Virus record (IMG/VR): IMGVR_UViG_3300030329_005426
Coordinates: 90,114 to 154,113 of that record
Strand: one strand, 5' to 3'
DNA: 64,000 nucleotides
Origin: a virus
The notes below the pieces were generated by a model, which saw only the letters and a program-made list of their open reading frames with translations, had not been told where the DNA came from and searched no databases. The translations under genes were made by a program, and so were the position numbers. Shown piece after piece: positions 7,159 to 56,517 of the stretch; positions within the stretch are counted from its first letter, which is position 1, and every line of letters starts with the position of its first letter.

Positions 7159-8056
7159 GTAATGCGCTCCGGGTATGGGGATCCGTTGTATTTCCACGGC
7201 CATGAAAGCCTCCTACATTTGCGATAACTAAAGTATTTTTTCTAACCGGCACTGGTTCGGCAAATAATCCTAAACTGCTTAATTCTAGTTTATTAATACG
7301 AAATGATCCTTCGGGTTGGCCTCGGCCGCGTGCTTTATCATATGTACCTTCACATACTTTAACTGATTGCGTATGATACCATTCAAGCTTTGCAGTATTC
7401 AACACTGGGCTTTTTTTAACATAAACGAATGGACCTTGCTCTTCGTGAACGCTATCAGGAAAATACCAAAATTTCAAAGCGGGAAAAAAGGTATCCATAT
7501 GAACATATTTTTGTTCATCGTTATCGTCTGGTCGATTTTCTATGCGTTGAACAAATGTATTATCTTTCAAATATTCACTGACTTCGAAACCCATACATTC
7601 TCTTACCAGACTAGCCAATCCACTTGATTTCATCAAGAAACTTAAACCTGTATGATTATCAAATGTATGTGATAAATTCGAAATATTCTTATTCATAGCT
7701 ATAGGATAATCCATGACCTCAACATGAATTTTCTGTGCTATTTCAGAATCCAAGAAATCTTCGATAACTATTAAACCATCTGTATCGAATTGACTATTAC
7801 CACAACGCCAATAATGGATATAATGTGCCATGCACATACGCCAAACATGAAATCCCCGTTTGGCCAAACCTACATCATTGAGAATAGGGGTTGTAAAGTC
7901 TTTTTTATTTGATAGTATTAATTGGGGTACATCATCCACACCAAAATACTTTAGACCAGCCATTAAAGCTTCATGGAGCTGGTCTGTCTTGCCTTCCATC
8001 ATGATGGTTTCGGCATCGCGTAATTCTTCTGTATTGAGGTAATTTGATAATAGCAT
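7121..8056 (-). CDS. phytanoyl-CoA dioxygenase-family 2OG-Fe(II) oxygenase
   Basis: HMD...GPF.YV...FHGRG...R. Confidence 0.75.
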   Translation of the reverse strand: MLLSNYLNTEELRDAETIMMEGKTDQLHEALMAGLKYFGVDDVPQLILSNKKDFTTPILNDVGLAKRGFHVWRMCMAHYIHYWRCGNSQFDTDGLIVIEDFLDSEIAQKIHVEVMDYPIAMNKNISNLSHTFDNHTGLSFLMKSSGLASLVRECMGFEVSEYLKDNTFVQRIENRPDDNDEQKYVHMDTFFPALKFWYFPDSVHEEQGPFVYVKKSPVLNTAKLEWYHTQSVKVCEGTYDKARGRGQPEGSFRINKLELSSLGLFAEPVPVRKNTLVIANVGGFHGRGNTTDPHTRSALHGSVRSRSPFTF

Positions 8057-8757
8057 TAGATCCATTCCACGTTAGGACAAAATTCCATTATAGCCTCTAC
8101 GGCGGCGATGTTATCTTTTGATAATTTGAAAGGACCGTTATTCTCACGAATAATGTGCATTCTTTTATCTGGATTAAAGAGTAGGGTGCTCAAAGTAAAG
8201 CTCGAAGGCGTACCCCTTACTTCATCTGCCCAATAGATGGACTTCCAATCACGAACATCATCTTGATCAGATATTTGAAAGGATATATCAGGATTCAATG
8301 ATTTTTGTAATTGCAGGCCCAGTACGACGGCACCAGTTAGCCTTTTATCATCAGACATGATAGTAAAAGGCTTATCAAATTTTAGGGCTGCTGGGACATA
8401 TGCATCAGCACTGGCCATATTTTTATCCTGCCCTCTGATATGAAGAATACGATCATATCGAGTAGAAACAATATCCGTCCTCGGTTTAAAAAGTGACTGT
8501 ACCTTTCCGCGGTTAGCAAAGGCGCGGCGCATACCTTCTGGTGACCAAACACTCTGCTTTCGGACACCAGGAACATTCTTGATTGGAATATTTGTCTCGA
8601 AAATCTCTAGCAATCGGTTATGGAAACCTGGATCGTCACCATTACCAATATTAACATGGATACCGTCAACGGTCCATTCATTATTAAAAGCAGCAGTGAG
8701 CCCCGCATGGAGCTCAAATATCTGCATACCTAATTTACCACGGATATTAACTTGCAA
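8056..8757 (-). CDS. GT11 (alpha-1,2-fucosyltransferase)-like glycosyltransferase
   Basis: GKLGMQIF (cf. GGLGNQ), LHIRGQD (cf. HxRxGD), SDD, SSFT. Confidence 0.7.
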   Translation of the reverse strand: MQVNIRGKLGMQIFELHAGLTAAFNNEWTVDGIHVNIGNGDDPGFHNRLLEIFETNIPIKNVPGVRKQSVWSPEGMRRAFANRGKVQSLFKPRTDIVSTRYDRILHIRGQDKNMASADAYVPAALKFDKPFTIMSDDKRLTGAVVLGLQLQKSLNPDISFQISDQDDVRDWKSIYWADEVRGTPSSFTLSTLLFNPDKRMHIIRENNGPFKLSKDNIAAVEAIMEFCPNVEWI

Positions 8758-8920
8758 AATCGGGTTCTCCCATGACATCCTGAATGAAGCGCCGCACGAA
8801 CAGCTCATCAACAGGGGACATGTTAGTTTTAACGTAGGCTACTACGTCATTCTCAGTCTTGGCACCACATTGAACGGCCTCGACTGCTAATTCTTCCATC
8901 AGTGCTTTTTTTGTCGCCAT
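8747..8920 (-). CDS. hypothetical protein
   Basis: SD and own promoter. Confidence 0.65.
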   Translation of the reverse strand: MATKKALMEELAVEAVQCGAKTENDVVAYVKTNMSPVDELFVRRFIQDVMGEPDFAS

Positions 8921-8949
8921 CTTCTTCACCTCTTCACAGTTATAATAAG

Positions 8950-8978
8950 ATTATAAAGCAAAATGAAAATTAAAGCAA
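8950..8978 (-). promoter_or_regulatory. sigma70-type promoter
   Basis: TTGCTT-N17-TATAAT. Confidence 0.65.
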
Positions 8979-9068
8979 CACCTCATTCATATCCAGAACA
9001 ATTAAATAGCACAAAAGTGTTATGGATATACCAAAAATAAGGCCAAGAAAAAATTCTTTTGTCATCAT
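8970..9068 (-). CDS. single-TM micro-protein (not in ORF track)
   Basis: MMTKEFFLGLIFGISITLLCYLIVLDMNEVLL, ATGA overlap. Confidence 0.55.
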   Translation of the reverse strand: MMTKEFFLGLIFGISITLLCYLIVLDMNEVLL

Positions 9069-9346
9069 TTCTCCCATACATCAGTTTCACCGGGCTTTAT
9101 GGAACGCATTTCAATTCCTTCGAATGCGCCGCCCAAACTAACCGTAAACGGCGCATCTTTATGCAAAGTCCAGTGAATTTCATGACAATCAACGATGCCT
9201 GTTGATACATATTCCTTTGTCATGTATCCTAGGCCTACTAGCGTACCCATCGTGATTACATCGGGGTCGGAACAGCCTCCCATAGCGGCTACTTTTAATT
9301 CGCCGCTATCGGAGTTGATTTGATCGAGGATATCCTGACGATCCAT
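9065..9346 (-). CDS. hypothetical early protein
   Basis: TAATG-coupled start MDRQDIL. Confidence 0.65.
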   Translation of the reverse strand: MDRQDILDQINSDSGELKVAAMGGCSDPDVITMGTLVGLGYMTKEYVSTGIVDCHEIHWTLHKDAPFTVSLGGAFEGIEMRSIKPGETDVWEK

Positions 9347-9690
9347 TAGGATGCCTTCCTTTTGGCATCCCACTTGGCCCATGAGGCCTTAACGGCTGCC
9401 TCGAAGCCTTCTGGCGTAACCGGAAAACCTTCGCGCTTACACGCGGCTTTAGCATTCCGGCTCATGTAGCCTTTGGACTCAAGAATCTTCAGCGGAGGAA
9501 CATCAGCCGCATAAGCATCGAAATACTCTTCGACGGTGAAGTTCTTGATCAGGAAGGTCGTAAAAGGACCCATATCGCGACGATCTGTCTTGAACCGAGC
9601 GATGAAACCGCGCTTGGCGTTCGCCGGAAGCGGACCAGTATAGGTCAGATACATTCCGTCCTTGCGTAGGTTTTCTCTCGTAAATCTCAT
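9346..9690 (-). CDS. hypothetical early protein
   Basis: start MRFTREN after AGGAG; GC-rich codons; first gene after early promoter. Confidence 0.75.
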   Translation of the reverse strand: MRFTRENLRKDGMYLTYTGPLPANAKRGFIARFKTDRRDMGPFTTFLIKNFTVEEYFDAYAADVPPLKILESKGYMSRNAKAACKREGFPVTPEGFEAAVKASWAKWDAKRKAS

Positions 9691-9719
9691 TGCTTTCTCC
9701 TTCTCTCTCATTATAATTA

Positions 9720-9800
9720 ATTATAACACACATCGAAAAAAAGATCAACAGGTTTTTTCAAAAAAACACACTTTTCTTTTCATTGTATATCAACGAGTTA
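9720..9800 (-). promoter_or_regulatory. early promoter element copy 1 (IHF consensus + A-tract + sigma70 promoter)
   Basis: TTGATC-N17-TATAAT; TATCAACGAGTTA at 9788-9800. Confidence 0.8.
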
Positions 9801-10742
9801 ACGTGAATCAAACATTTTTGCCACGTACGTATTGATAAAATCGTGATATCGCACTAGGTCCGGGGCACTGGAAATTGCAACATCCATAATATTATGGGCG
9901 GTATCGAGGTTGGAGCAATCATAAACCACAGCTGAATAATCAGCGCGACCGTAAGCACAAACAGGTTTACTATGCAGTATCGCCTCCATCCCGACTCCTG
10001 AATTAACCATACAGACCATAGCACTGTTAGCAATAAGGTCGTTAATATTAACATTGTCTGCCCACAAATATCCTTTCCCAATCTCTCTCAGTTCTTTCAT
10101 TGAGCCCGGATTGACAGGGTGACCCTTAATTATCAACTCTAAGCCCCTACTTTCACAGAAGTCAATTGTACACTGGAGTGCTTGAGCAACACTCACATCA
10201 CTGTGAAAGCGAATCGTTTCATCATGAGGAATCTGACAAGGAAAGAATACATATCCCTTATGTTCAAAGGTGTTGGGTCCATTATACCCATCCATCTTCG
10301 GCTGAGGAAATTTACTCTCGCCCTTATTCAGTCTCTCTTGTAGTTCCATAAATCGTTCAACGTGACTGTCCTCTGGTTGGATAGGCCACACCGATGCATC
10401 AGGACCCCATCCTTTAGGATCGATTTGAAATAGCCACGGAAACACCATCTGCATATAATACTGTGGATTATATTTTTTATCTACAGGAAATTGATGTGAC
10501 TGTTTATGAGGAATATATACTTTATCAGGTTTCATCGTAACTACAAGCTCTGGTGTGAATTGCCAGTTAGGTAATTCCAAAACTTTAACAATGTTTCCTT
10601 TCTCCTCCTCGATCGAGGCAAGTTTATCAACAAACCTTTTCCAATGCATTCTGATTGGCTCTATAGATCCGCGTTCTTTAGGCACAGGACCTTTTTTAAA
10701 CATTATGTCTAGTCTAGGCTTAAATATTAGGACTTTTTCCAA
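9798..10742 (-). CDS. KpsC/KpsS-like capsular polysaccharide glycosyltransferase
   Basis: QIPHD (QxxxD), KGHP, NSGVGMEA motifs. Confidence 0.75.
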   Translation of the reverse strand: MEKVLIFKPRLDIMFKKGPVPKERGSIEPIRMHWKRFVDKLASIEEEKGNIVKVLELPNWQFTPELVVTMKPDKVYIPHKQSHQFPVDKKYNPQYYMQMVFPWLFQIDPKGWGPDASVWPIQPEDSHVERFMELQERLNKGESKFPQPKMDGYNGPNTFEHKGYVFFPCQIPHDETIRFHSDVSVAQALQCTIDFCESRGLELIIKGHPVNPGSMKELREIGKGYLWADNVNINDLIANSAMVCMVNSGVGMEAILHSKPVCAYGRADYSAVVYDCSNLDTAHNIMDVAISSAPDLVRYHDFINTYVAKMFDSR

Positions 10743-39179: not shown

Positions 39180-39395
39180 TTATAAAGGCCCGCGTTTATT
39201 TCGATCTAGGTCAATTCCATACTTATGGCAGCCAGACAATAAAAAACTGGGTGTCTGGCCCTGGAATCCACCGCCAGTAACGAGATTCTTATGTAGACGT
39301 TTAATCTTTGCAATAGAGCGAGAAGTAGCCACATATTGATCCGTAGCTTCTTCATAGATCCGTGCGTTAGGTCCATGTCGTTTTATCTTATACAT
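39180..39395 (-). CDS. conserved small protein
   Basis: GGFQGQTPSF. Confidence 0.65.
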   Translation of the reverse strand: MYKIKRHGPNARIYEEATDQYVATSRSIAKIKRLHKNLVTGGGFQGQTPSFLLSGCHKYGIDLDRNKRGPL

Positions 39396-40600
39396 CAGTA
39401 ATGGTTCTCCAAGCCGTGGTCTTTCCAAAGTTTGAGAAAGACGCCAGTATCCCATGGCTGCCAATCTCCGTTAAAGTTCCACTCCTCATCAATATCACAT
39501 TCTGCTACACCTTGTCCGCGTGGCGGTCGCTTTGGTGGATGTGTAAGAAATTTAAGAATATTCTCTCGCAACCTTTCATAGCGGTTACTAGGCATCATTT
39601 TAAATTGATCTGGATTATCACAGAAATATTGTAACCATTGTGGGAAACCTCCATTGTCGCCCACTACATCTGGCCAGACATGTCGTAAGCTATCACGCTT
39701 TACTTGACGCCATACAGATTCATCTTGCCAGAAAAGATACAGATGTTCTTTTGTTGGATGTTTTAAGTTGTCCCAATTCTCATCGGGGCATTTAGTATGT
39801 GAATTATTATTCATGGCCCATAATTGACATTCTTCGCTATCGAAGAAGTTATAAAAATTGGCAATTCTAAATCGGGCCATCATGGGAAGCCTAGTAGTAC
39901 ATAACTGCCATTTAATAGCAAAGCCTAGCCACCACGTTAAATCATAATTATTTTCTATATCGACTGGACATTTTTCAACAATAGGCTCATACCATTCACG
40001 ATGATCATCTGGTATACCTTTCCATAAATCAGTTGACCAATGATCAACATTATAATGCCTATCACTGCCGTCCGCAGTATAAACTATTTGATCATGACGA
40101 TACATTTTACTCCCGAAACAAATATCACCTGGATCACCTCCTACCCACATACGATGCAGGCTGTTCTCTTCCATAAAAAGAAACGGTAAGAACGTTACAT
40201 GAAAAATTCTATCAACACGTGGATGGTTTTTAATCATCTCATAAAATTCGGGCCACTCTTCGATAGAGGAATCAGAATAGGTAAGATCGATAGTTTCATC
40301 CGTATACATTAAGAATGCTGCTATGGCTGATGTACTATCCATACCACCAGAGCATGTAACGGTAATTCGTTGATCGTATTCTTTTGCTATGCGAGCTAGT
40401 TCTATTGCGCGTGTGGCACATGTCTCAGTCCACGATGCAGTATATGTTTTCATTTCCGGGATCGGAGAAATAATTTTTTGGTTAAATCCTAGATCAACAG
40501 ATTCTGTTCTATCGAATACACGACCCATACAAACAGGTACGATTTGATCCATAACAAATTCGGGGTACCAACTTAAACGCGGGAAAACATAGCTAGTCAT
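39395..40600 (-). CDS. adenine-nucleotide alpha-hydrolase (asparagine synthase C-domain-like)
   Basis: PP-loop SGGMDS; G..GD..FG. Confidence 0.7.
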   Translation of the reverse strand: MTSYVFPRLSWYPEFVMDQIVPVCMGRVFDRTESVDLGFNQKIISPIPEMKTYTASWTETCATRAIELARIAKEYDQRITVTCSGGMDSTSAIAAFLMYTDETIDLTYSDSSIEEWPEFYEMIKNHPRVDRIFHVTFLPFLFMEENSLHRMWVGGDPGDICFGSKMYRHDQIVYTADGSDRHYNVDHWSTDLWKGIPDDHREWYEPIVEKCPVDIENNYDLTWWLGFAIKWQLCTTRLPMMARFRIANFYNFFDSEECQLWAMNNNSHTKCPDENWDNLKHPTKEHLYLFWQDESVWRQVKRDSLRHVWPDVVGDNGGFPQWLQYFCDNPDQFKMMPSNRYERLRENILKFLTHPPKRPPRGQGVAECDIDEEWNFNGDWQPWDTGVFLKLWKDHGLENHY

Positions 40601-51030: not shown

Positions 51031-51126
51031 AATGGAATGAGGACCGGAGACTTGTGTGTTAGGTAATTGTGATCACTCTCACGCCATAGACAACGATCAG
51101 TGACTTCCCCCGGTCCTCTCTCCATT
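51031..51126 (-). ncRNA. candidate structured RNA domain
   Basis: 6-bp + 12-bp closing stems; G-U pairs only on minus strand; internal TGATC/GATCA stem. Confidence 0.5.
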
Positions 51127-51158
51127 TGTGATGTAGGATACATCTCCTACATTATTAT

Positions 51159-51187
51159 ATATAAGGCATTGCCCTATATTTTGCAAC
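51159..51187 (-). promoter_or_regulatory. putative RpoH-type promoter
   Basis: GTTG-N17-CCTTATAT. Confidence 0.45.
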
Positions 51188-51202
51188 CGGAAAGTGACGT
51201 TT

Positions 51203-51427
51203 TCAGGAAACCAGTTTATTGCCCCATTTAATATCGGCAATATACGTGATGTATCCATCGCGACTGGTATCAACAGTAATGTTGTAATTCCCAGCATATT
51301 CTGCCAAAAATACAGACACGCTGTTGTACGCATGCTGAGGATTTTTTACCGCCCAGCCAAGATTATGCTCGAGCTTCACTTGTGCCGTAACGGCCCCTTT
51401 CAACTCCGATGTATTCATTATATACAC
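51203..51427 (-). CDS. hypothetical protein
   Basis: coupled ORF. Confidence 0.6.
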   Translation of the reverse strand: MYIMNTSELKGAVTAQVKLEHNLGWAVKNPQHAYNSVSVFLAEYAGNYNITVDTSRDGYITYIADIKWGNKLVS

Positions 51428-51780
51428 CTCAATTGATCACGAGCTATCATTTTAGCTCTCTCACGGTTTTTCGCTGCCATCGTCAACAGCATTGAACCCA
51501 CAGGCTCATGCTTACCCACAAACCGATGACTCTCGTTATCACGAGCCATCTGATTCTGGCGCGCCGCGCTATCCCAGAGTATCACGCAATCTTTGTGATC
51601 CTCCATCCAGGCCTCGCCAGATTCCCAGGTTTCGCCCTGCTCACTAACCCACTCTTGAGTTGCAAACAGGCACCACTCGCGTTCAGTTATTTCCATCTGA
51701 ACAGCGGAACCACCGTGGGTCTTACCGGCCCAAAAACGGACAGCCATGTGCTCACCGTTAACTGTAAATTGTGTACTCAT
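51418..51780 (-). CDS. hypothetical early protein
   Basis: TAATG-coupled. Confidence 0.7.
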   Translation of the reverse strand: MSTQFTVNGEHMAVRFWAGKTHGGSAVQMEITEREWCLFATQEWVSEQGETWESGEAWMEDHKDCVILWDSAARQNQMARDNESHRFVGKHEPVGSMLLTMAAKNRERAKMIARDQLRCI

Positions 51781-52136
51781 TATGATACCGTCCTTTCACC
51801 AGTTATGACGTTGACGACTTCAACGCCGGGTCCAAAAGCAGCGCGCATTTCGAACTGCTCTTCAGCAATCTGCTCAGGGGTGCGATTTGCACGAGCAACT
51901 TTGTAGTCAGCGAAGAAAGCCGCATTCTGCTCGTCGCGAGCGATTTCAGTCGCATCGAAAACTTCCTGAGTGATCAGGCCGAGCTCTAACCAACGAGTGG
52001 TCATGTCGTTCATCGGGCTGCGATCGTTGGTGTTCCACAGCAACACACCATCTTCGATCCGATGATCGTTTTTGGCGAATTTCTCTGCGGCTTCTTTAAG
52101 ATCGCGCTCTTTGCGGATTTCTGCGAAATTTGACAT
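51780..52136 (-). CDS. hypothetical early protein
   Basis: start MSNFAEI; C-terminal EMRAAFGPG.EVVNVITG. Confidence 0.75.
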   Translation of the reverse strand: MSNFAEIRKERDLKEAAEKFAKNDHRIEDGVLLWNTNDRSPMNDMTTRWLELGLITQEVFDATEIARDEQNAAFFADYKVARANRTPEQIAEEQFEMRAAFGPGVEVVNVITGERTVS

Positions 52137-52167: not shown

Positions 52168-52249
52168 ATTATCACGCAATTCAATAATAAAGGCAACCCG
52201 GTATTTTCAAAAAAACACACTTTTCTTTTCTAATGATATCAACGACTTA
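52168..52249 (-). promoter_or_regulatory. early promoter element copy 3
   Basis: TTGCCT-N17-GATAAT; TATCAACGACTTA at 52237-52249. Confidence 0.8.
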
Positions 52250-53207
52250 TATAGGGGGCAGGGTCGATATCCTTCAATTGGTCGCGTCTGATGACGGTAC
52301 CGTCGGCTAAAACGGCCACATTTCTGCACGTTCCTTCAAATGCATCCAGCTGGCCGTGTTTAAGCGAAATGACCTTGCCCTTGCCATATGCATATGACCG
52401 GTCACCCGTCTGATTGAAGATATAGTCCCGGAGCTCCATTTTACCCTGCAGATACCCCTCCGGATTCGAGATATGCTCGCGGTGGAGCTCATTTCGCAGA
52501 TGCTTCGTGATAAACCAGCGCTGGACATCATAATCCGTAAATAGGCTCTCACAATTCTCAATTACAACATTATCGTACGGCACACCTTCAAAATCACGAT
52601 ATCGGCGCCAGAACCAACCAAATCGAATCTTGCTATAGAAATCCCATTCATCGCCTACGGGACTCAAGGATCCTGCACTGAATAATGTATCCGCCTCATT
52701 TCCATGAACCGTAATATGATGCTTGACGATCTCCGCACGAATATTCCCATCATTTATAACATGCGGCATATACTGAACGAGTGTATCATATAAATCTGGA
52801 TATTCGTCAATGGATCCCGGACTCATAATAACTCTGAGCTGATCCGACTCAGCATGTTCTTTAAGCAATAGCAGCGTGGCGGTACTATCTATGCCGCCAG
52901 AATATAGAACGTCAATGGGTCGATTTAATCTACACAATCGCTGCGCTTTAGCATCAAGTAATGTTATGAGATCGGGTAATTCAACTTCTTCATTAGGCGG
53001 TAATACGTCGAATGATAAAGTTCTGAGGCCCCAGTTTTTTTCATTTAGTCGATCGATGACGCCTGTGCCATAAAATTGCTTGCGTATCCGATCTGCTTCT
53101 TCTTGTAAGCCTTGTAGCTTAGGATAAGTAGGTCCGTATTTCCACATTTTTTGAAATATGGCTTCTACGAATTCGGGCCTATAATATATAAGATATTTTT
53201 CTTCCAT
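52239..53207 (-). CDS. adenine-nucleotide alpha-hydrolase (asparagine synthase C-domain-like)
   Basis: YSGGIDST, G.EAD.LF; TAATG-coupled to TRAP permease. Confidence 0.7.
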   Translation of the reverse strand: MEEKYLIYYRPEFVEAIFQKMWKYGPTYPKLQGLQEEADRIRKQFYGTGVIDRLNEKNWGLRTLSFDVLPPNEEVELPDLITLLDAKAQRLCRLNRPIDVLYSGGIDSTATLLLLKEHAESDQLRVIMSPGSIDEYPDLYDTLVQYMPHVINDGNIRAEIVKHHITVHGNEADTLFSAGSLSPVGDEWDFYSKIRFGWFWRRYRDFEGVPYDNVVIENCESLFTDYDVQRWFITKHLRNELHREHISNPEGYLQGKMELRDYIFNQTGDRSYAYGKGKVISLKHGQLDAFEGTCRNVAVLADGTVIRRDQLKDIDPAPYISR

Positions 53208-54535
53208 TATAGCCACACAAAAATAAACGGAACAATGAATAGGGGTAATGCTAGCCACACAGACATAAATGATACGTCAATGGGATCTGCATCAGCTATC
53301 TTTGCTGCAGTGAACGAAGACAGTGCTACGGGCGGGGTGATCATAGATAATACTCCATAGTATAATACAAACAGATGAGCATATATAGGCGTAATCCCAA
53401 CTTCGATTAATGTTGGGGCTGCAACTACTGCTACTAATAGATATGCGGATGAAGTAGGCATCCCCATACCTAAAATTATACAGATTATAGCGGTTAATAT
53501 TAAAACAGCAAAAATGTTGCCGTTAGTCCATTCAAGCATCATTGCTGTTGCTCTGAACGATAAGCCAGTATGATCCAATACCCCTATTATACTTCCTACA
53601 GCAGCTGCTAGAATTACCATAGGCATAGTAATCTCACCTGCTCGATGTAATAAATTTATTATGTTGGGGAACTGTAATTTGGTCTTACGCTTTGGAAGTG
53701 ATACTTTAGACGTTCGAGGCGCGGTAATCAAAAGAATAGCATAGAAGATAAATGTTGGGATAATGGCTACTAAAACTACGTCCCAATACGATATCATTAA
53801 CATCTCAGCCATTAAAAATGCAGCTGCTCCCATTACGGGTGGCATTAATTGGCCACCTGTTGATGCTACTGCTTCATATGCGGCTGCTTTTACTTTACTA
53901 TATCCATTCTGAATCATTAAAGGAATAGTAATTTGCCCGGTTGACATTACGTTAGATACAGCACTACCACTAATACTACCAAATATCCCTGATGATATAA
54001 TTGCTACGCGTGCTGGTGAATTAACATGCGTCATTACTGTATCTATTAAACGATCAGCTAATTTACTTTGTGTTATAATCTGTCCTAGTAAAATAAAACA
54101 AAATACAACCCCTGACATAATAGCAATAGGCATACCTAGAATTGCGGTATTATCGATTAAGAGAAAAGCGAATATATGCTCTGGGGTTAATTTAAATAAA
54201 CCATATAACAAAAATACATTTAATATCGCTGCAAAGGCCCAACCACAATGTTTATGAGTCTGTAGAACTAGATAAAGAAAAAATGGTACGGTGAAGTAAA
54301 TTGGAATTTCAGGGTGTTCTGATAGGTAGGGGAAGAATATAGCATATACTATTCCTAATACACCAAAAGTCCAACCCAGAGCTATTCCGAGAAGGACTGC
54401 ATATATTTGTTCATCGAGAAAAGGGTAGCCGATGTAAAAATCAACATCGACTACCGCTAAAATAGCAATTATAGAAAATAAGCTACTTCTAAGTTTTCTT
54501 GAAAAGGATGACGCCGCCGCGGTCTTTAATTTCAA
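53207..54535 (-). CDS. TRAP transporter permease (TAXI-type fused family, shortened)
   Basis: SGSAVSNV.STG.ITIP.M, EAVASTGGQ.MPPVMGAAAF, LGMGMPT, ITPPVA. Confidence 0.9.
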   Translation of the reverse strand: MKLKTAAASSFSRKLRSSLFSIIAILAVVDVDFYIGYPFLDEQIYAVLLGIALGWTFGVLGIVYAIFFPYLSEHPEIPIYFTVPFFLYLVLQTHKHCGWAFAAILNVFLLYGLFKLTPEHIFAFLLIDNTAILGMPIAIMSGVVFCFILLGQIITQSKLADRLIDTVMTHVNSPARVAIISSGIFGSISGSAVSNVMSTGQITIPLMIQNGYSKVKAAAYEAVASTGGQLMPPVMGAAAFLMAEMLMISYWDVVLVAIIPTFIFYAILLITAPRTSKVSLPKRKTKLQFPNIINLLHRAGEITMPMVILAAAVGSIIGVLDHTGLSFRATAMMLEWTNGNIFAVLILTAIICIILGMGMPTSSAYLLVAVVAAPTLIEVGITPIYAHLFVLYYGVLSMITPPVALSSFTAAKIADADPIDVSFMSVWLALPLFIVPFIFVWL

Positions 54536-55469
54536 CCCCAAGCTCTTGGTATGCGTCAATAGCTCCTGGATGCATTGGTAAACCATTGGTTACTTCCATC
54601 ATATTCCATTTATTAAATGTTTTGAAAAAAGGACTAGCCGCCCTTAAATTCTCTTCACTCCAAAATAGATACTTAACTACTGTTTTTACAGCTTCAGTTG
54701 GTACATCTTTATGGGCCCATAATGTATATGGAAAATGTATAGCATAAATTGGATCCCGAACTCCGGGAGTAGCTTTTGAGGGGTGAATAACTTTTAACGA
54801 ATATCCAGGATAATTTTTAAACATCCGTTTTTCACCAGCTTTATCAAAAGATAACCAACGTACTCCACCTTTAATTGAAGCATGTAATTTTTTAATACTA
54901 CCTGAGCCAATGGCACCAATAACAACATCTAGATCACCACGATTAAATGCTTTCCATGATGATCCTAAACTCGATACTGGGACTTGAATAACATCATCAA
55001 GAGTTAAATCACAATTAGTAAGCCAGGCAACCATTCCACTATGAAACATAGGCGAACTTTTAAATCCAACAGGCACTTTTTTTCCTGCTAGACTACATAC
55101 ACGGCCTATATCAGAACTATCGCGCACTAGCAATCCGGTTCTAAATGTTTGTAGATTTGCTACAAGACGTAAATTTGAATGTTTACGTTTTGAAATAACC
55201 GTTCCGCTTACTGCCCACGATAGCTGTGCTATATTACTGATTCCAAAATCGATTTCACCTTTATCAACTCGATCAATATAAGCCTGTGTTCCTCTATGTG
55301 GAATGGGTACCATAAGTTGGCCGTTATAAGAAACAATCTTTGCGATTGCAGCTGCTGTTTGATAATTGGCAGTTCCTTTTGTACTGCCAAGTGTTAATTC
55401 CTGAGCCATGGCTTGTGAACCCAAGAACAAAGCCACCACTGTGGCCACTGTGGCTATCACGGTACGCAT
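54489..55469 (-). CDS. TAXI family TRAP solute-binding protein
   Basis: signal peptide; L.GKKV.VG; P.HPGA..AY.E.G. Confidence 0.85.
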   Translation of the reverse strand: MRTVIATVATVVALFLGSQAMAQELTLGSTKGTANYQTAAAIAKIVSYNGQLMVPIPHRGTQAYIDRVDKGEIDFGISNIAQLSWAVSGTVISKRKHSNLRLVANLQTFRTGLLVRDSSDIGRVCSLAGKKVPVGFKSSPMFHSGMVAWLTNCDLTLDDVIQVPVSSLGSSWKAFNRGDLDVVIGAIGSGSIKKLHASIKGGVRWLSFDKAGEKRMFKNYPGYSLKVIHPSKATPGVRDPIYAIHFPYTLWAHKDVPTEAVKTVVKYLFWSEENLRAASPFFKTFNKWNMMEVTNGLPMHPGAIDAYQELGVEIKDRGGVILFKKT

Positions 55470-55487
55470 AATTTTACTCCTTCATAC

Positions 55488-56372
55488 CTAAAATTTAATA
55501 TTAATACCTATCCTCGTTGTTGTGTCTTCGGTTGTTAGATCGAAATCACCTTCAGCAAATAACTCGGCATTTCCAAGTGTGTAATATGTTCCAGCTGTTA
55601 AGTTACCATCATCACCTGTGGCGTCTGTATCTTGCCAGCCACCGATAAATTGAAGATCAGGCATTACTTTATATCCAGCTGCTAATTCATAACCAATAAC
55701 GTCAGTAGCAGCATCTTGTAATGTAAGACTGCCAGCTACCATGTATTTACCAAACTCTTGTTTGGTACCGATACCATAATAGTTGATATCAGCATTATTA
55801 TCCCAAGCACCAACGATGCCGATTCCTTTATACACTACACCGTACTGTACCAAATCAAACATCTCATCTTTAGTATCGTCGTAAATTCGTCCTTGTGCGC
55901 CGACTTTAAAATCACCGAATGAGTTTTCATATTTCCAACTATTTGACAATTTAAATGGTGTCTTTTGTACACCTTGGTTACCGCTGTTTTGGAATACGTC
56001 TGCCTTATCAACATACTGGTCCATAATACTCATTGTTTTACCAATAGAAAAGGCACCTAGTCTATCATTTTTCAAACCAACATATCCAAAACGGCTTGTT
56101 ATATTATTACCGGATGAAATATCTAGATCAGCGCTCAATTCACCGAACGCAGTAATTGATGGAGATACTTCGTGGTCTACTTTTAATGTAATATTTGTAT
56201 CAGAAGATTTGATTTCTGCATCTTTGTTATCTTCTGTTCCGAACTCAATAAATGCTTTTACTTCGGCATTCATTGAAACATTTGGTTCTTTAGCTGGGCT
56301 ACCTGCATAAGCGTGTAGACCAAAAGCTTGGGCGGCAATAAACATTATTGCTACCATAGTCGTTTTTAACAT
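55488..56372 (-). CDS. Gram-negative outer-membrane porin
   Basis: signal peptide; R.GYVGL...G.FSIGK; amphipathic strands; terminal Phe. Confidence 0.85.
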   Translation of the reverse strand: MLKTTMVAIMFIAAQAFGLHAYAGSPAKEPNVSMNAEVKAFIEFGTEDNKDAEIKSSDTNITLKVDHEVSPSITAFGELSADLDISSGNNITSRFGYVGLKNDRLGAFSIGKTMSIMDQYVDKADVFQNSGNQGVQKTPFKLSNSWKYENSFGDFKVGAQGRIYDDTKDEMFDLVQYGVVYKGIGIVGAWDNNADINYYGIGTKQEFGKYMVAGSLTLQDAATDVIGYELAAGYKVMPDLQFIGGWQDTDATGDDGNLTAGTYYTLGNAELFAEGDFDLTTEDTTTRIGINIKF

Positions 56373-56405
56373 GTATTATATGTAACCTTTCTGCGCTTAT
56401 AACGC

Positions 56406-56462
56406 CTATAGTATATCTAAAATCATCACTAATGTTATAATCATAATAGTTAGTGTATGCAT
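56406..56462 (-). CDS. putative 18-aa hydrophobic leader peptide
   Basis: MHTLTIMIITLVMILDIL. Confidence 0.35.
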   Translation of the reverse strand: MHTLTIMIITLVMILDIL

Positions 56463-56471
56463 TGTAATTCC

Positions 56472-56489
56472 GTTGAACCATTGTTCAAC
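56472..56489. promoter_or_regulatory. operator-like inverted repeat
   Basis: GTTGAAC-CATT-GTTCAAC. Confidence 0.45.
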
Positions 56490-56517
56490 CATCCGCCGAT
56501 AATACTCAATCATTGAT

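Follow-up and report, generated by a model that had tools for sequence, protein, structure and literature searches.

The window analysed here, a 64,000-nucleotide (nt) stretch that forms the final 64 kb (positions 90,114 to 154,113) of the IMG/VR virus record IMGVR_UViG_3300030329_005426 (154,113 bp; completeness 85% according to CheckV), carries a block of four contiguous, co-oriented genes for a porin, a TAXI-family TRAP solute-binding protein, an unusually short TAXI-type TRAP permease and a PP-loop protein (Table 1). All genes around the block lie on the same strand, and the block is intact. In the downstream direction, gp62 (clamp-loader subunit) and regA come first, then a 145-nt gap, porin, binding protein, permease and PP-loop gene; two or three small open reading frames (ORFs; 51780-52136, 51418-51780 and 51097-51333) follow, and after them hsp20, pyrB, the lysozyme gene, a gene for a HAD/PNK-like protein and gp43 (DNA polymerase). 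The four genes had been placed directly between regA and hsp20 in an initial annotation made from the letters of the window; gene order and identities stand, and the small genes that part the PP-loop gene from hsp20 are to be added. The main result is that the binding protein and the short permease appear, from sequence comparisons, to form a phage-restricted TAXI-TRAP lineage that extends across many marine T4-like phage contigs. The binding-protein and permease genes, together with the porin gene where it is present, are referred to below as the cassette.

Table 1. Coordinates of the cassette, its flanks and the second TRAP gene set (window positions unless marked)
Feature	Position	Strand	Basis
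General diffusion porin, 294 residues	55488..56372	(-)	Pfam, AlphaFold2 model, Foldseek, phage-contig family
TAXI-family TRAP solute-binding protein, 326 residues, predicted secreted	54489..55469	(-)	TIGR02122, Pfam NMT1_3
Fused TRAP (TAXI-type) permease, minimised, 444-459 residues by start codon	53207..54586	(-)	TIGR02123, Pfam DctM, AlphaFold2
PP-loop (SGGIDS) ATP-pyrophosphatase-like protein, 322 residues, virus-only family near AsnB/QueC	52239..53207	(-)	Motif conservation
regA translational regulator, upstream phage flank	56518..56916	(-)	Pfam Translat_reg, E 3.1e-44
Non-coding gap between regA and porin, 145 nt	56373..56517	(-)	Sole sizeable non-coding stretch upstream of block
Small soluble ORF 3' of PP-loop gene, ~118 residues from ATG 52136	51780..52136	(-)	Translation
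hsp20, downstream phage flank	50494..50997	(-)	PHROG 432, E 1.1e-37; Pfam HSP20
dctQ	75334-75735 (record coordinates, outside window)	(-)	
dctM	74063-75301 (record coordinates, outside window)	(-)	Full length, model positions 2-412
dctP	73017-73856 (record coordinates, outside window)	(-)	

Gene products of the cassette

Profile searches bear out the receptor and permease assignments of the initial annotation. The binding protein matches TIGR02122 over profile positions 6-320 of 320 (123 bits, cut-off 84.35) and Pfam NMT1_3 with an E value of 2.8e-23, and the solved relatives that match it best are the TAXI proteins 8S4J and 1US4. Its N-terminus, MRTVIATVATVVALFLGSQAMA/QE, was judged by eye to be a Sec signal ending AMA, and its gene begins 18 nt after the porin gene, with a GAAGGAG ribosome site preceding the ATG. 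In the signal-peptide region, contigs of two independent runs (X7 and X9) carry a 9-nt in-frame deletion at window positions 55428-55436.

The import of Asp, Glu or Gln, which had been suggested for this system, finds no support. Glutamate is held in VcGluP by Y45, Q93 and E125, the first two of which are critical (PMC11574862). Their counterparts in the phage binding protein are N35, N79 and F109, in an alignment of ~20% identity that constitutes weak evidence against a glutamate site and names no other ligand; because the site residues differ, glutamate was rejected as the ligand. R101 and R204 are nearly invariant among phage-type binding proteins, and it may be speculated that they bind a carboxylate. 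By analogy with known systems, the solute is likely to be an organic acid or an amino-acid-like anion.

The permease scores 329.9 bits against TIGR02123 (cut-off 320.65) and matches Pfam DctM (E 1.6e-57) at model positions 13-186 and 253-405. Model positions 187-252, which correspond to a 57-residue gap within the core common to all DctM proteins, are absent. The start codon is uncertain: translation from the ATG gives 459 residues and overlaps the binding-protein gene by 98 nt, and translation from the TTG at 54541, as in the cluster representative P0034, gives 444 residues and an overlap of 53 nt. An AlphaFold2 model (predicted local distance difference test, pLDDT, 80.7) fits the solved TRAP membrane parts, with VIA-align Z scores of 25.6 (IseQM) and 21-24 (SiaQM); its residues 22-102 match the Q part and residues 103-459 the M part of those proteins. 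The estimate of ~440 residues with both conserved motif halves, much shorter than is typical of TAXI permeases, is supported.

The best structural matches of the permease model are DctP-type TRAP membrane proteins (HiSiaQM, 7QE5/8THI; PpSiaQM, 7QHA; IseQM, 9PYM), with Z scores of 21-25.6 over 347-393 aligned residues and an elevator-type DASS-like fold in common. The resemblance is one of fold, as sequence identity is 15-19%, the binding protein belongs to a different family, and 357 residues of the phage model stand against 407 of a separate M subunit, leaving a protein smaller than an M core plus Q. In gene layout the nearest parallel is with TAXI-type TRAP systems (VcGluP/VcGluQM of Vibrio cholerae; PMI1055/1056 of Proteus mirabilis; TtGluBP, 1US4), in which a binding protein stands beside a single fused membrane protein. 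The phage pair shares with these systems the above-threshold matches to TIGR02122 and TIGR02123, the TRAP QM fold and the hairpin-tip motifs. It differs from them in being phage-encoded, in the unconserved glutamate-site residues noted for VcGluP, and in the size of the permease, which at 444-459 residues rather than ~640-850 is without the two helices of DctM positions 187-252, a three-helix C-terminal extension and ~24 Q-like residues.

The porin exceeds the Pfam Porin_1 cut-off of 23.7 with 24.2 bits, only profile positions 18-115 of 337 being matched, and several of its homologues carry precomputed Porin_1 or Porin_4 matches. Its AlphaFold2 model, built with 30 homologues (pLDDT 85.9), is a 16-strand barrel with an L3-type loop at residues 115-140 that includes a short helix. 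Foldseek returned OmpU, Omp32 and OmpF as the best matches (template modelling score ~0.76, E 8e-17, probability 1.00). A signal peptide is present, and the C-terminus, ...INIKF, ends in Phe. Phage-encoded porins are known, among them Lc of phage PA-2 and NmpC of prophage DLP12, and the modelled barrel, constriction loop, signal peptide and C-terminal Phe are features that the window protein would share with these as well as with OmpU, Omp32 and OmpF. Unlike known porins, its precursor has only 294 residues and is 13-19% identical to solved porins; unlike Lc and NmpC, which belong to temperate coliphages, it is found in lytic-type T4-like phages beside transporters. A tblastn search of the phage collection with the porin gave no match. 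Its profile found nothing in three Rhodospirillaceae-like metagenome-assembled genomes (MAGs), and none of the 301 alphaproteobacterial genomes that were sampled gave a match at E <=1e-5, results that say little about its origin.

A phage lineage of short permeases

Database searches with the permease recovered ~50 clusters of proteins of 414-464 residues at 44-66% identity, below which identity falls to <=43% and sizes jump to the canonical 620-666 residues. When 116 sequences were placed in a tree, a single clade with a Shimodaira-Hasegawa-like support of 100 took in 49 short permeases out of 50; the one outside it comes from a 1.9-kb contig and is probably a fragment. Members of the clade are ~190 residues shorter than canonical bacterial permeases of 640-650 residues. 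When the phage permease is mapped on a 647-residue relative, the missing residues comprise 24 in the N-terminal Q-like region (a loop and part of a helix), 4, 11 and 4 in small loops, 57 in the middle (two hydrophobic helices) and the final 91 (three hydrophobic helices). A three-helix C-terminal extension has been described in both TAXI permeases studied (PMC11574862), and it is this typical extension that the phage protein is missing. The permease accordingly does not have the full TAXI complement of a 4-helix Q-like part, a 12-helix DctM core and a 3-helix C-terminal extension.

Retained in the AlphaFold2 model, from N to C, are the first hairpin (tip FGSISGSAVSN), a broken helix and a single transmembrane helix; the loop that carries the deletion; one long and one short helix; and the second hairpin (tip LGMGMPT), which is followed by another broken helix and by the last helix. 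Across 39 short permeases, 80 alignment columns are invariant, including the FGSxSGSAVSN and LGMGMPT hairpin tips; the invariant tip residues are S198, S199, F202-G-S204, S206-G207, A209, N212, L372-G-M-G375 and P377-T378. By internal two-fold symmetry, we infer that the two lost helices would correspond, in the second repeat, to the scaffold helices at 96-132. The model thus pictures the permease as an apparently intact transport domain on a reduced scaffold.

The short clade occupies 33 loci in IMG/VR, at four or more genome positions, and every genomic context examined is that of a T4-like phage. Most loci lie between the gp18 sheath and gp17 terminase genes; other positions are between uvsX and gp41 (L102 and L002), in a gp38/tail-fibre cluster (L101) and between regA and hsp20 (the window and a 156,995-bp contig). 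The binding-protein gene stands directly upstream of the permease at every locus where upstream DNA is covered. Synteny with the 156,995-bp contig is the closest, as the porin, binding-protein and permease genes recur there in the same order at the same regA-hsp20 position with 62-66% amino-acid identity, the 319-residue product of the gene between regA and the TAXI gene being the porin homologue P0158 (62% identity). That contig also carries an orphan DctP-type binding protein of 346 residues just upstream of gp43. Intermediate permease forms occur elsewhere: IMGVR_UViG_3300009481_003971 (L136/L137) encodes a 517-residue permease (7599-9152; 35% identical) that precedes its binding protein (9192-10187), with a porin homologue (L146, 6001-6933) ~21 kb from the TAXI genes, and further examples are L133 (498 residues) and L135.

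The short form was not found in bacteria, either among the best 80 loci of a scan of 185,579 species or among the matches listed for 401 alphaproteobacterial genomes. In the former set, bacterial relatives are <=42% identical in their best segments and come mostly from marine Rhodospirillaceae and other alphaproteobacterial MAGs, which gives a weak hint of the lineage that may have donated the permease. In the latter, 93 of the 401 genomes have permease homologues, with identities of <=52% over short C-terminal segments; the frames in the matches listed span 610-960 residues except for four cut short (273-570 residues), and many matches are split in two around the segment absent from the phage permeases. 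Within the phage collection the permease had matches in just two gut records, both unannotated and labelled "Bacteriophage sp.", with identities of 33-35%. A literature search returned no relevant description of phage or viral TRAP or TAXI transporters; it did not extend to subscription journals and does not prove that they are undescribed. A survey of pelagimyophage genomes mentions neither TRAP, TAXI nor porin.

A permease ~190 residues short of its bacterial relatives might be a decaying relic, or the locus might be host DNA mis-assembled into a phage contig, as the initial annotation had allowed. Contigs from independent marine metagenome runs bridge the junctions between regA and porin and across PP-loop gene, permease and binding protein, so that the suspicion of a host/phage chimera was not borne out and was rejected. 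The exact protein sequences of the porin and of the PP-loop gene product are recorded on 16-20 contigs, the longest of which measures 154,435 bp. Listed natural variants comprise three synonymous and one V-to-I change in the permease, five synonymous and one R-to-K change in the binding protein, and 11 synonymous and two non-synonymous changes in the PP-loop gene. Indels at the locus are limited to the deletion in the signal peptide described above and 2-nt changes in non-coding DNA, including the gap upstream of the porin, and none of the listed variants in the block breaks a frame. A pseudogene was likewise rejected, as end points and deletions are common to 49 clade sequences that are 44-66% identical, and the cassette occupies the same position in a second phage. 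Artefact or decay is therefore extremely improbable. Of the two defects that had been named as fatal to the permease, a frameshift is not seen among the listed variants; as to the other, the lack of essential transport helices, two helices of the DctM core are absent, which by internal symmetry would belong to the scaffold. No RNA data set was listed as containing the window; a 167-nt contig from a metatranscriptome run of a possible source sample maps to 54602-54764, inside the binding-protein gene, for which DNA carry-over may be the origin.

The PP-loop gene and other neighbours

The fourth gene of the block encodes a protein whose PP-loop motif reads VLYSGGIDST. D99 and S103-G-G-x-D-S108 are invariant in 30 homologues, and the motif is placed as expected after a strand. 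Like the C-terminal domain of AsnB and like QueC, the protein carries an SGGxDS motif, and a profile search of the PDB aligned it with asparagine synthetase (E 0.024) over 52 residues of the motif region only. Unlike AsnB and QueC, it falls below the thresholds of the family models, has no glutaminase domain, belongs to a virus-only family and has several paralogues per genome. No Pfam, NCBIfam or PHROG family matched at threshold (Asn_synthase, 12.8 bits against a cut-off of 21), tblastn of the phage collection gave no match, and the ESM Atlas clusters that resemble it are 97-100% viral.

The initial annotation coupled this enzyme to the transporter, and the TAATG that joins the permease stop to the PP-loop start was confirmed by direct reading (53209-53205, minus strand). 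Such coupling would imply a four-gene pathway in which the imported solute is the PP-loop substrate, a carboxylate that is adenylated and then amidated or ligated, transport and activation forming one unit. In agreement with this possibility, the genes are co-oriented and tightly packed, and members of the PP-loop family lie within ~3 kb of the short permease, in several arrangements, at ~26 of 38 short-clade loci surveyed; at gp17-gp18 they converge on the permease 3' end, and in L101 the order PP-loop, glyoxalase, binding protein, permease is co-oriented throughout. Porin relatives are also located within clusters of PP-loop paralogues and cupins. Stop/start overlaps are, however, common in densely packed phage genomes.

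The history of the gene family bears on the same question. The closest relatives of the window PP-loop protein (51-61% identity) lie upstream of gp13 in a conserved tail-fibre/neck cluster that has no TRAP gene and is composed of a fibre gene, a QueC-like gene, three tandem PP-loop paralogues, a hydrolase and an aminotransferase. Synteny with L003 shows that the window genome keeps paralogue A in this cluster (38.2-39.2 kb) and has paralogue B at 83.4-84.4 kb, and that paralogue C, the gene beside the permease, has departed from the cluster for its present spot, which can be read in favour of a joint pathway. Against it, the closest cassette, that of the 156,995-bp phage, is without a PP-loop gene, the orthologue remaining near gp13, and L102 and L002 have no PP-loop neighbour either. 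Furthermore, the cassette-near copies elsewhere are distant paralogues, 23-32% identical, and most of the loci concerned share a single ancestral position beside gp17 where PP-loop genes are resident. With 3-5 paralogues per phage resident in the gp17 and fibre regions, proximity may reflect shared accessory-gene islands. A rough estimate for the finding that three of four independent cassette positions lie near a paralogue gives p ~0.02 under uniform placement and ~0.2-0.3 if accessory genes cluster. Coupling to the enzyme is thus not established. The four-gene pathway is considered unlikely, though it retains some weight, and the PP-loop enzyme is most likely, on the synteny evidence, a separate phage gene relocated beside the cassette; a metabolic link between it and the imported solute is possible.

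The PP-loop family is expanded in these phages, often beside cupins, 2-oxoglutarate oxygenases, aminotransferases and the QueC-like protein. At least three paralogues are present in the window genome, including one at window positions 39395-40600 on the minus strand, and related phages carry 3-5, with three in tandem upstream of gp13. A T4-like contig has a weak TctC match (L005:2792-3868) near a PP-loop homologue and gp13.

Guanine-plus-cytosine (GC) content is 0.34-0.40 across the porin, binding-protein and permease genes, like that of the flanks. It rises to 0.43-0.46 across the PP-loop gene and to 0.52 just downstream, where a patch at 51500-52000, against ~0.37 around it, spans the first two of the small ORFs. 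The first of these (51780..52136) has no family match in Pfam, NCBIfam or PHROG searches; none of its three listed natural variants changes an amino acid, and a 2-nt insertion carried by one strain falls before its ATG. The second (51418-51780) is phrog_38700, and four of its five listed variants are non-synonymous. Upstream of the block there is no other non-coding stretch of any size, which makes the gap between regA and the porin gene a candidate promoter region. Three weak sigma-70-like matches were found within it, and the overall scan for promoters and terminators was no richer than that of shuffled sequence. A near-identity DNA search of the phage collection gave no match. No GenBank phage has a DNA polymerase more than 46% identical to that of the window phage, and those that come nearest belong to cyanophages and to viruses from single-cell genomes.

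A predicted uptake module and its meaning

The cassette genes have the setting of auxiliary metabolic genes: they belong to a genuine phage genome, stand between phage core genes and are found again in related phages. On the strength of gene identities, predicted folds, phage context and conservation across phages, the locus is best read as a phage auxiliary uptake module, with a probability of roughly 0.62. During infection, a compact 16-stranded diffusion porin would be added to the host outer membrane, the secreted TAXI binding protein would catch a small solute in the periplasm, and the fused TRAP permease would take the solute from it and move it inward by an elevator mechanism, driven by an ion gradient without need of ATP. 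The permease would stem from a phage-specific lineage that shed ~190 residues, having apparently lost two scaffold-assigned DctM helices, the three helices of the C-terminal extension and some of the Q-like region while keeping the hairpin tips and broken helices of the transport domain; the porin would be an optional add-on.

Several observations weigh against this interpretation. The match of the permease to TIGR02123 barely exceeds the cut-off, and the Pfam match of the porin is marginal and partial. The permease is without helices common to all characterised TRAP permeases, and conservation is the single line of argument for function on the reduced scaffold. The bacterial scan covered the best 80 loci, and a rare bacterial short form may exist. 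Finally, all three genes come together only in the window phage and on the 156,995-bp contig; with the porin linked to the pair in just these two phages, the clade as a whole cannot be credited with a dedicated route. The route from outer membrane to cytoplasm envisaged at the outset agrees with gene content, fold, context and conservation, with the outer-membrane step confined to these two phages.

Other genes indicate further investment in uptake. A second TRAP set, complete and canonical, with adjacent dctP, dctM and dctQ genes on the minus strand, lies ~14 kb before the start of the window (Table 1), and the window phage is therefore predicted to encode two complete TRAP transporters. Related porins stand beside a PHO4-like protein in other phages: in L016 (6001-8500; L143 and L148 have the same layout), a porin relative is followed by a 320-residue membrane protein and then by hsp20. 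The 320-residue protein matches the PHO4 phosphate-transporter family below threshold (27.7 bits, cut-off 33.7), and the arrangement may be a parallel module of porin and inner-membrane transporter. We read the porin as a probable general permeability booster that is joined to various inner-membrane transporters. The L016 contig also carries a gene for ribosomal protein S21 (2436-2738).

The porin family is widespread in viral contigs as proteins of ~300 residues, many of them on phage contigs with no TRAP partner, and phages are known to use porins in lysogenic conversion, as with Lc of phage PA-2. The porin, and perhaps the binding protein, might accordingly serve to replace or mask host envelope components against superinfection or to alter permeability, uptake being incidental. 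Such envelope remodelling leaves unexplained why binding protein and permease are strictly paired at 33 or more loci, as well as the invariant transport-domain motifs and the second complete TRAP system, and is improbable. A role in sensing, in which the pair would take up or relay a signal molecule of the periplasm by which infection or lysis is timed, appears slightly more improbable still: the full transport-competent core is conserved, the cassette includes no holin-like or regulator partner, and it lies among replication and metabolic genes.

A broader proposal extends the uptake module. Marine T4-like phages may have evolved a minimal TRAP architecture, a transport domain with a strongly reduced scaffold, of ~14 helices as compared with ~20 in canonical TAXI permeases, that acts alone, self-paired or with a Q-type subunit borrowed from host or phage, as one arm of a phage-built acquisition and processing pathway (porin, two TRAP systems and expanded sets of PP-loop, cupin, oxygenase and aminotransferase genes) that turns an imported organic acid into a phage-specific product. 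This proposal is speculative, and somewhat less probable than the simpler four-gene pathway.

Most of the uptake genes known from lytic marine phages encode one part only, which works as an add-on to machinery of the host. The pstS gene of cyanophages is such an auxiliary gene, its product being a single component that works with the host ABC transporter. The two cases are alike in that a marine T4-like lytic phage encodes a periplasmic protein that would bind a nutrient for uptake, and differ in that phages of the window type supply both binding protein and permease and, in two phages, an outer-membrane pore as well. The kind of transporter is already known, and what we class as new is the phage-restricted short TAXI-TRAP lineage.

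The short-permease clade is a natural deletion series and offers a test case for the minimal scaffold of an elevator transporter. To our knowledge, the structure of a TAXI membrane component is still unsolved, and the short permease provides a small target for such work. As predicted from its genes, an abundant lineage of uncultured T4-like phages carries a self-sufficient, ATP-free secondary transporter. If it does function in uptake, this would suggest that the supply of a specific dissolved organic compound limits phage production in heterotrophic hosts, and the ligand of the binding protein would be a handle on which compound that is.

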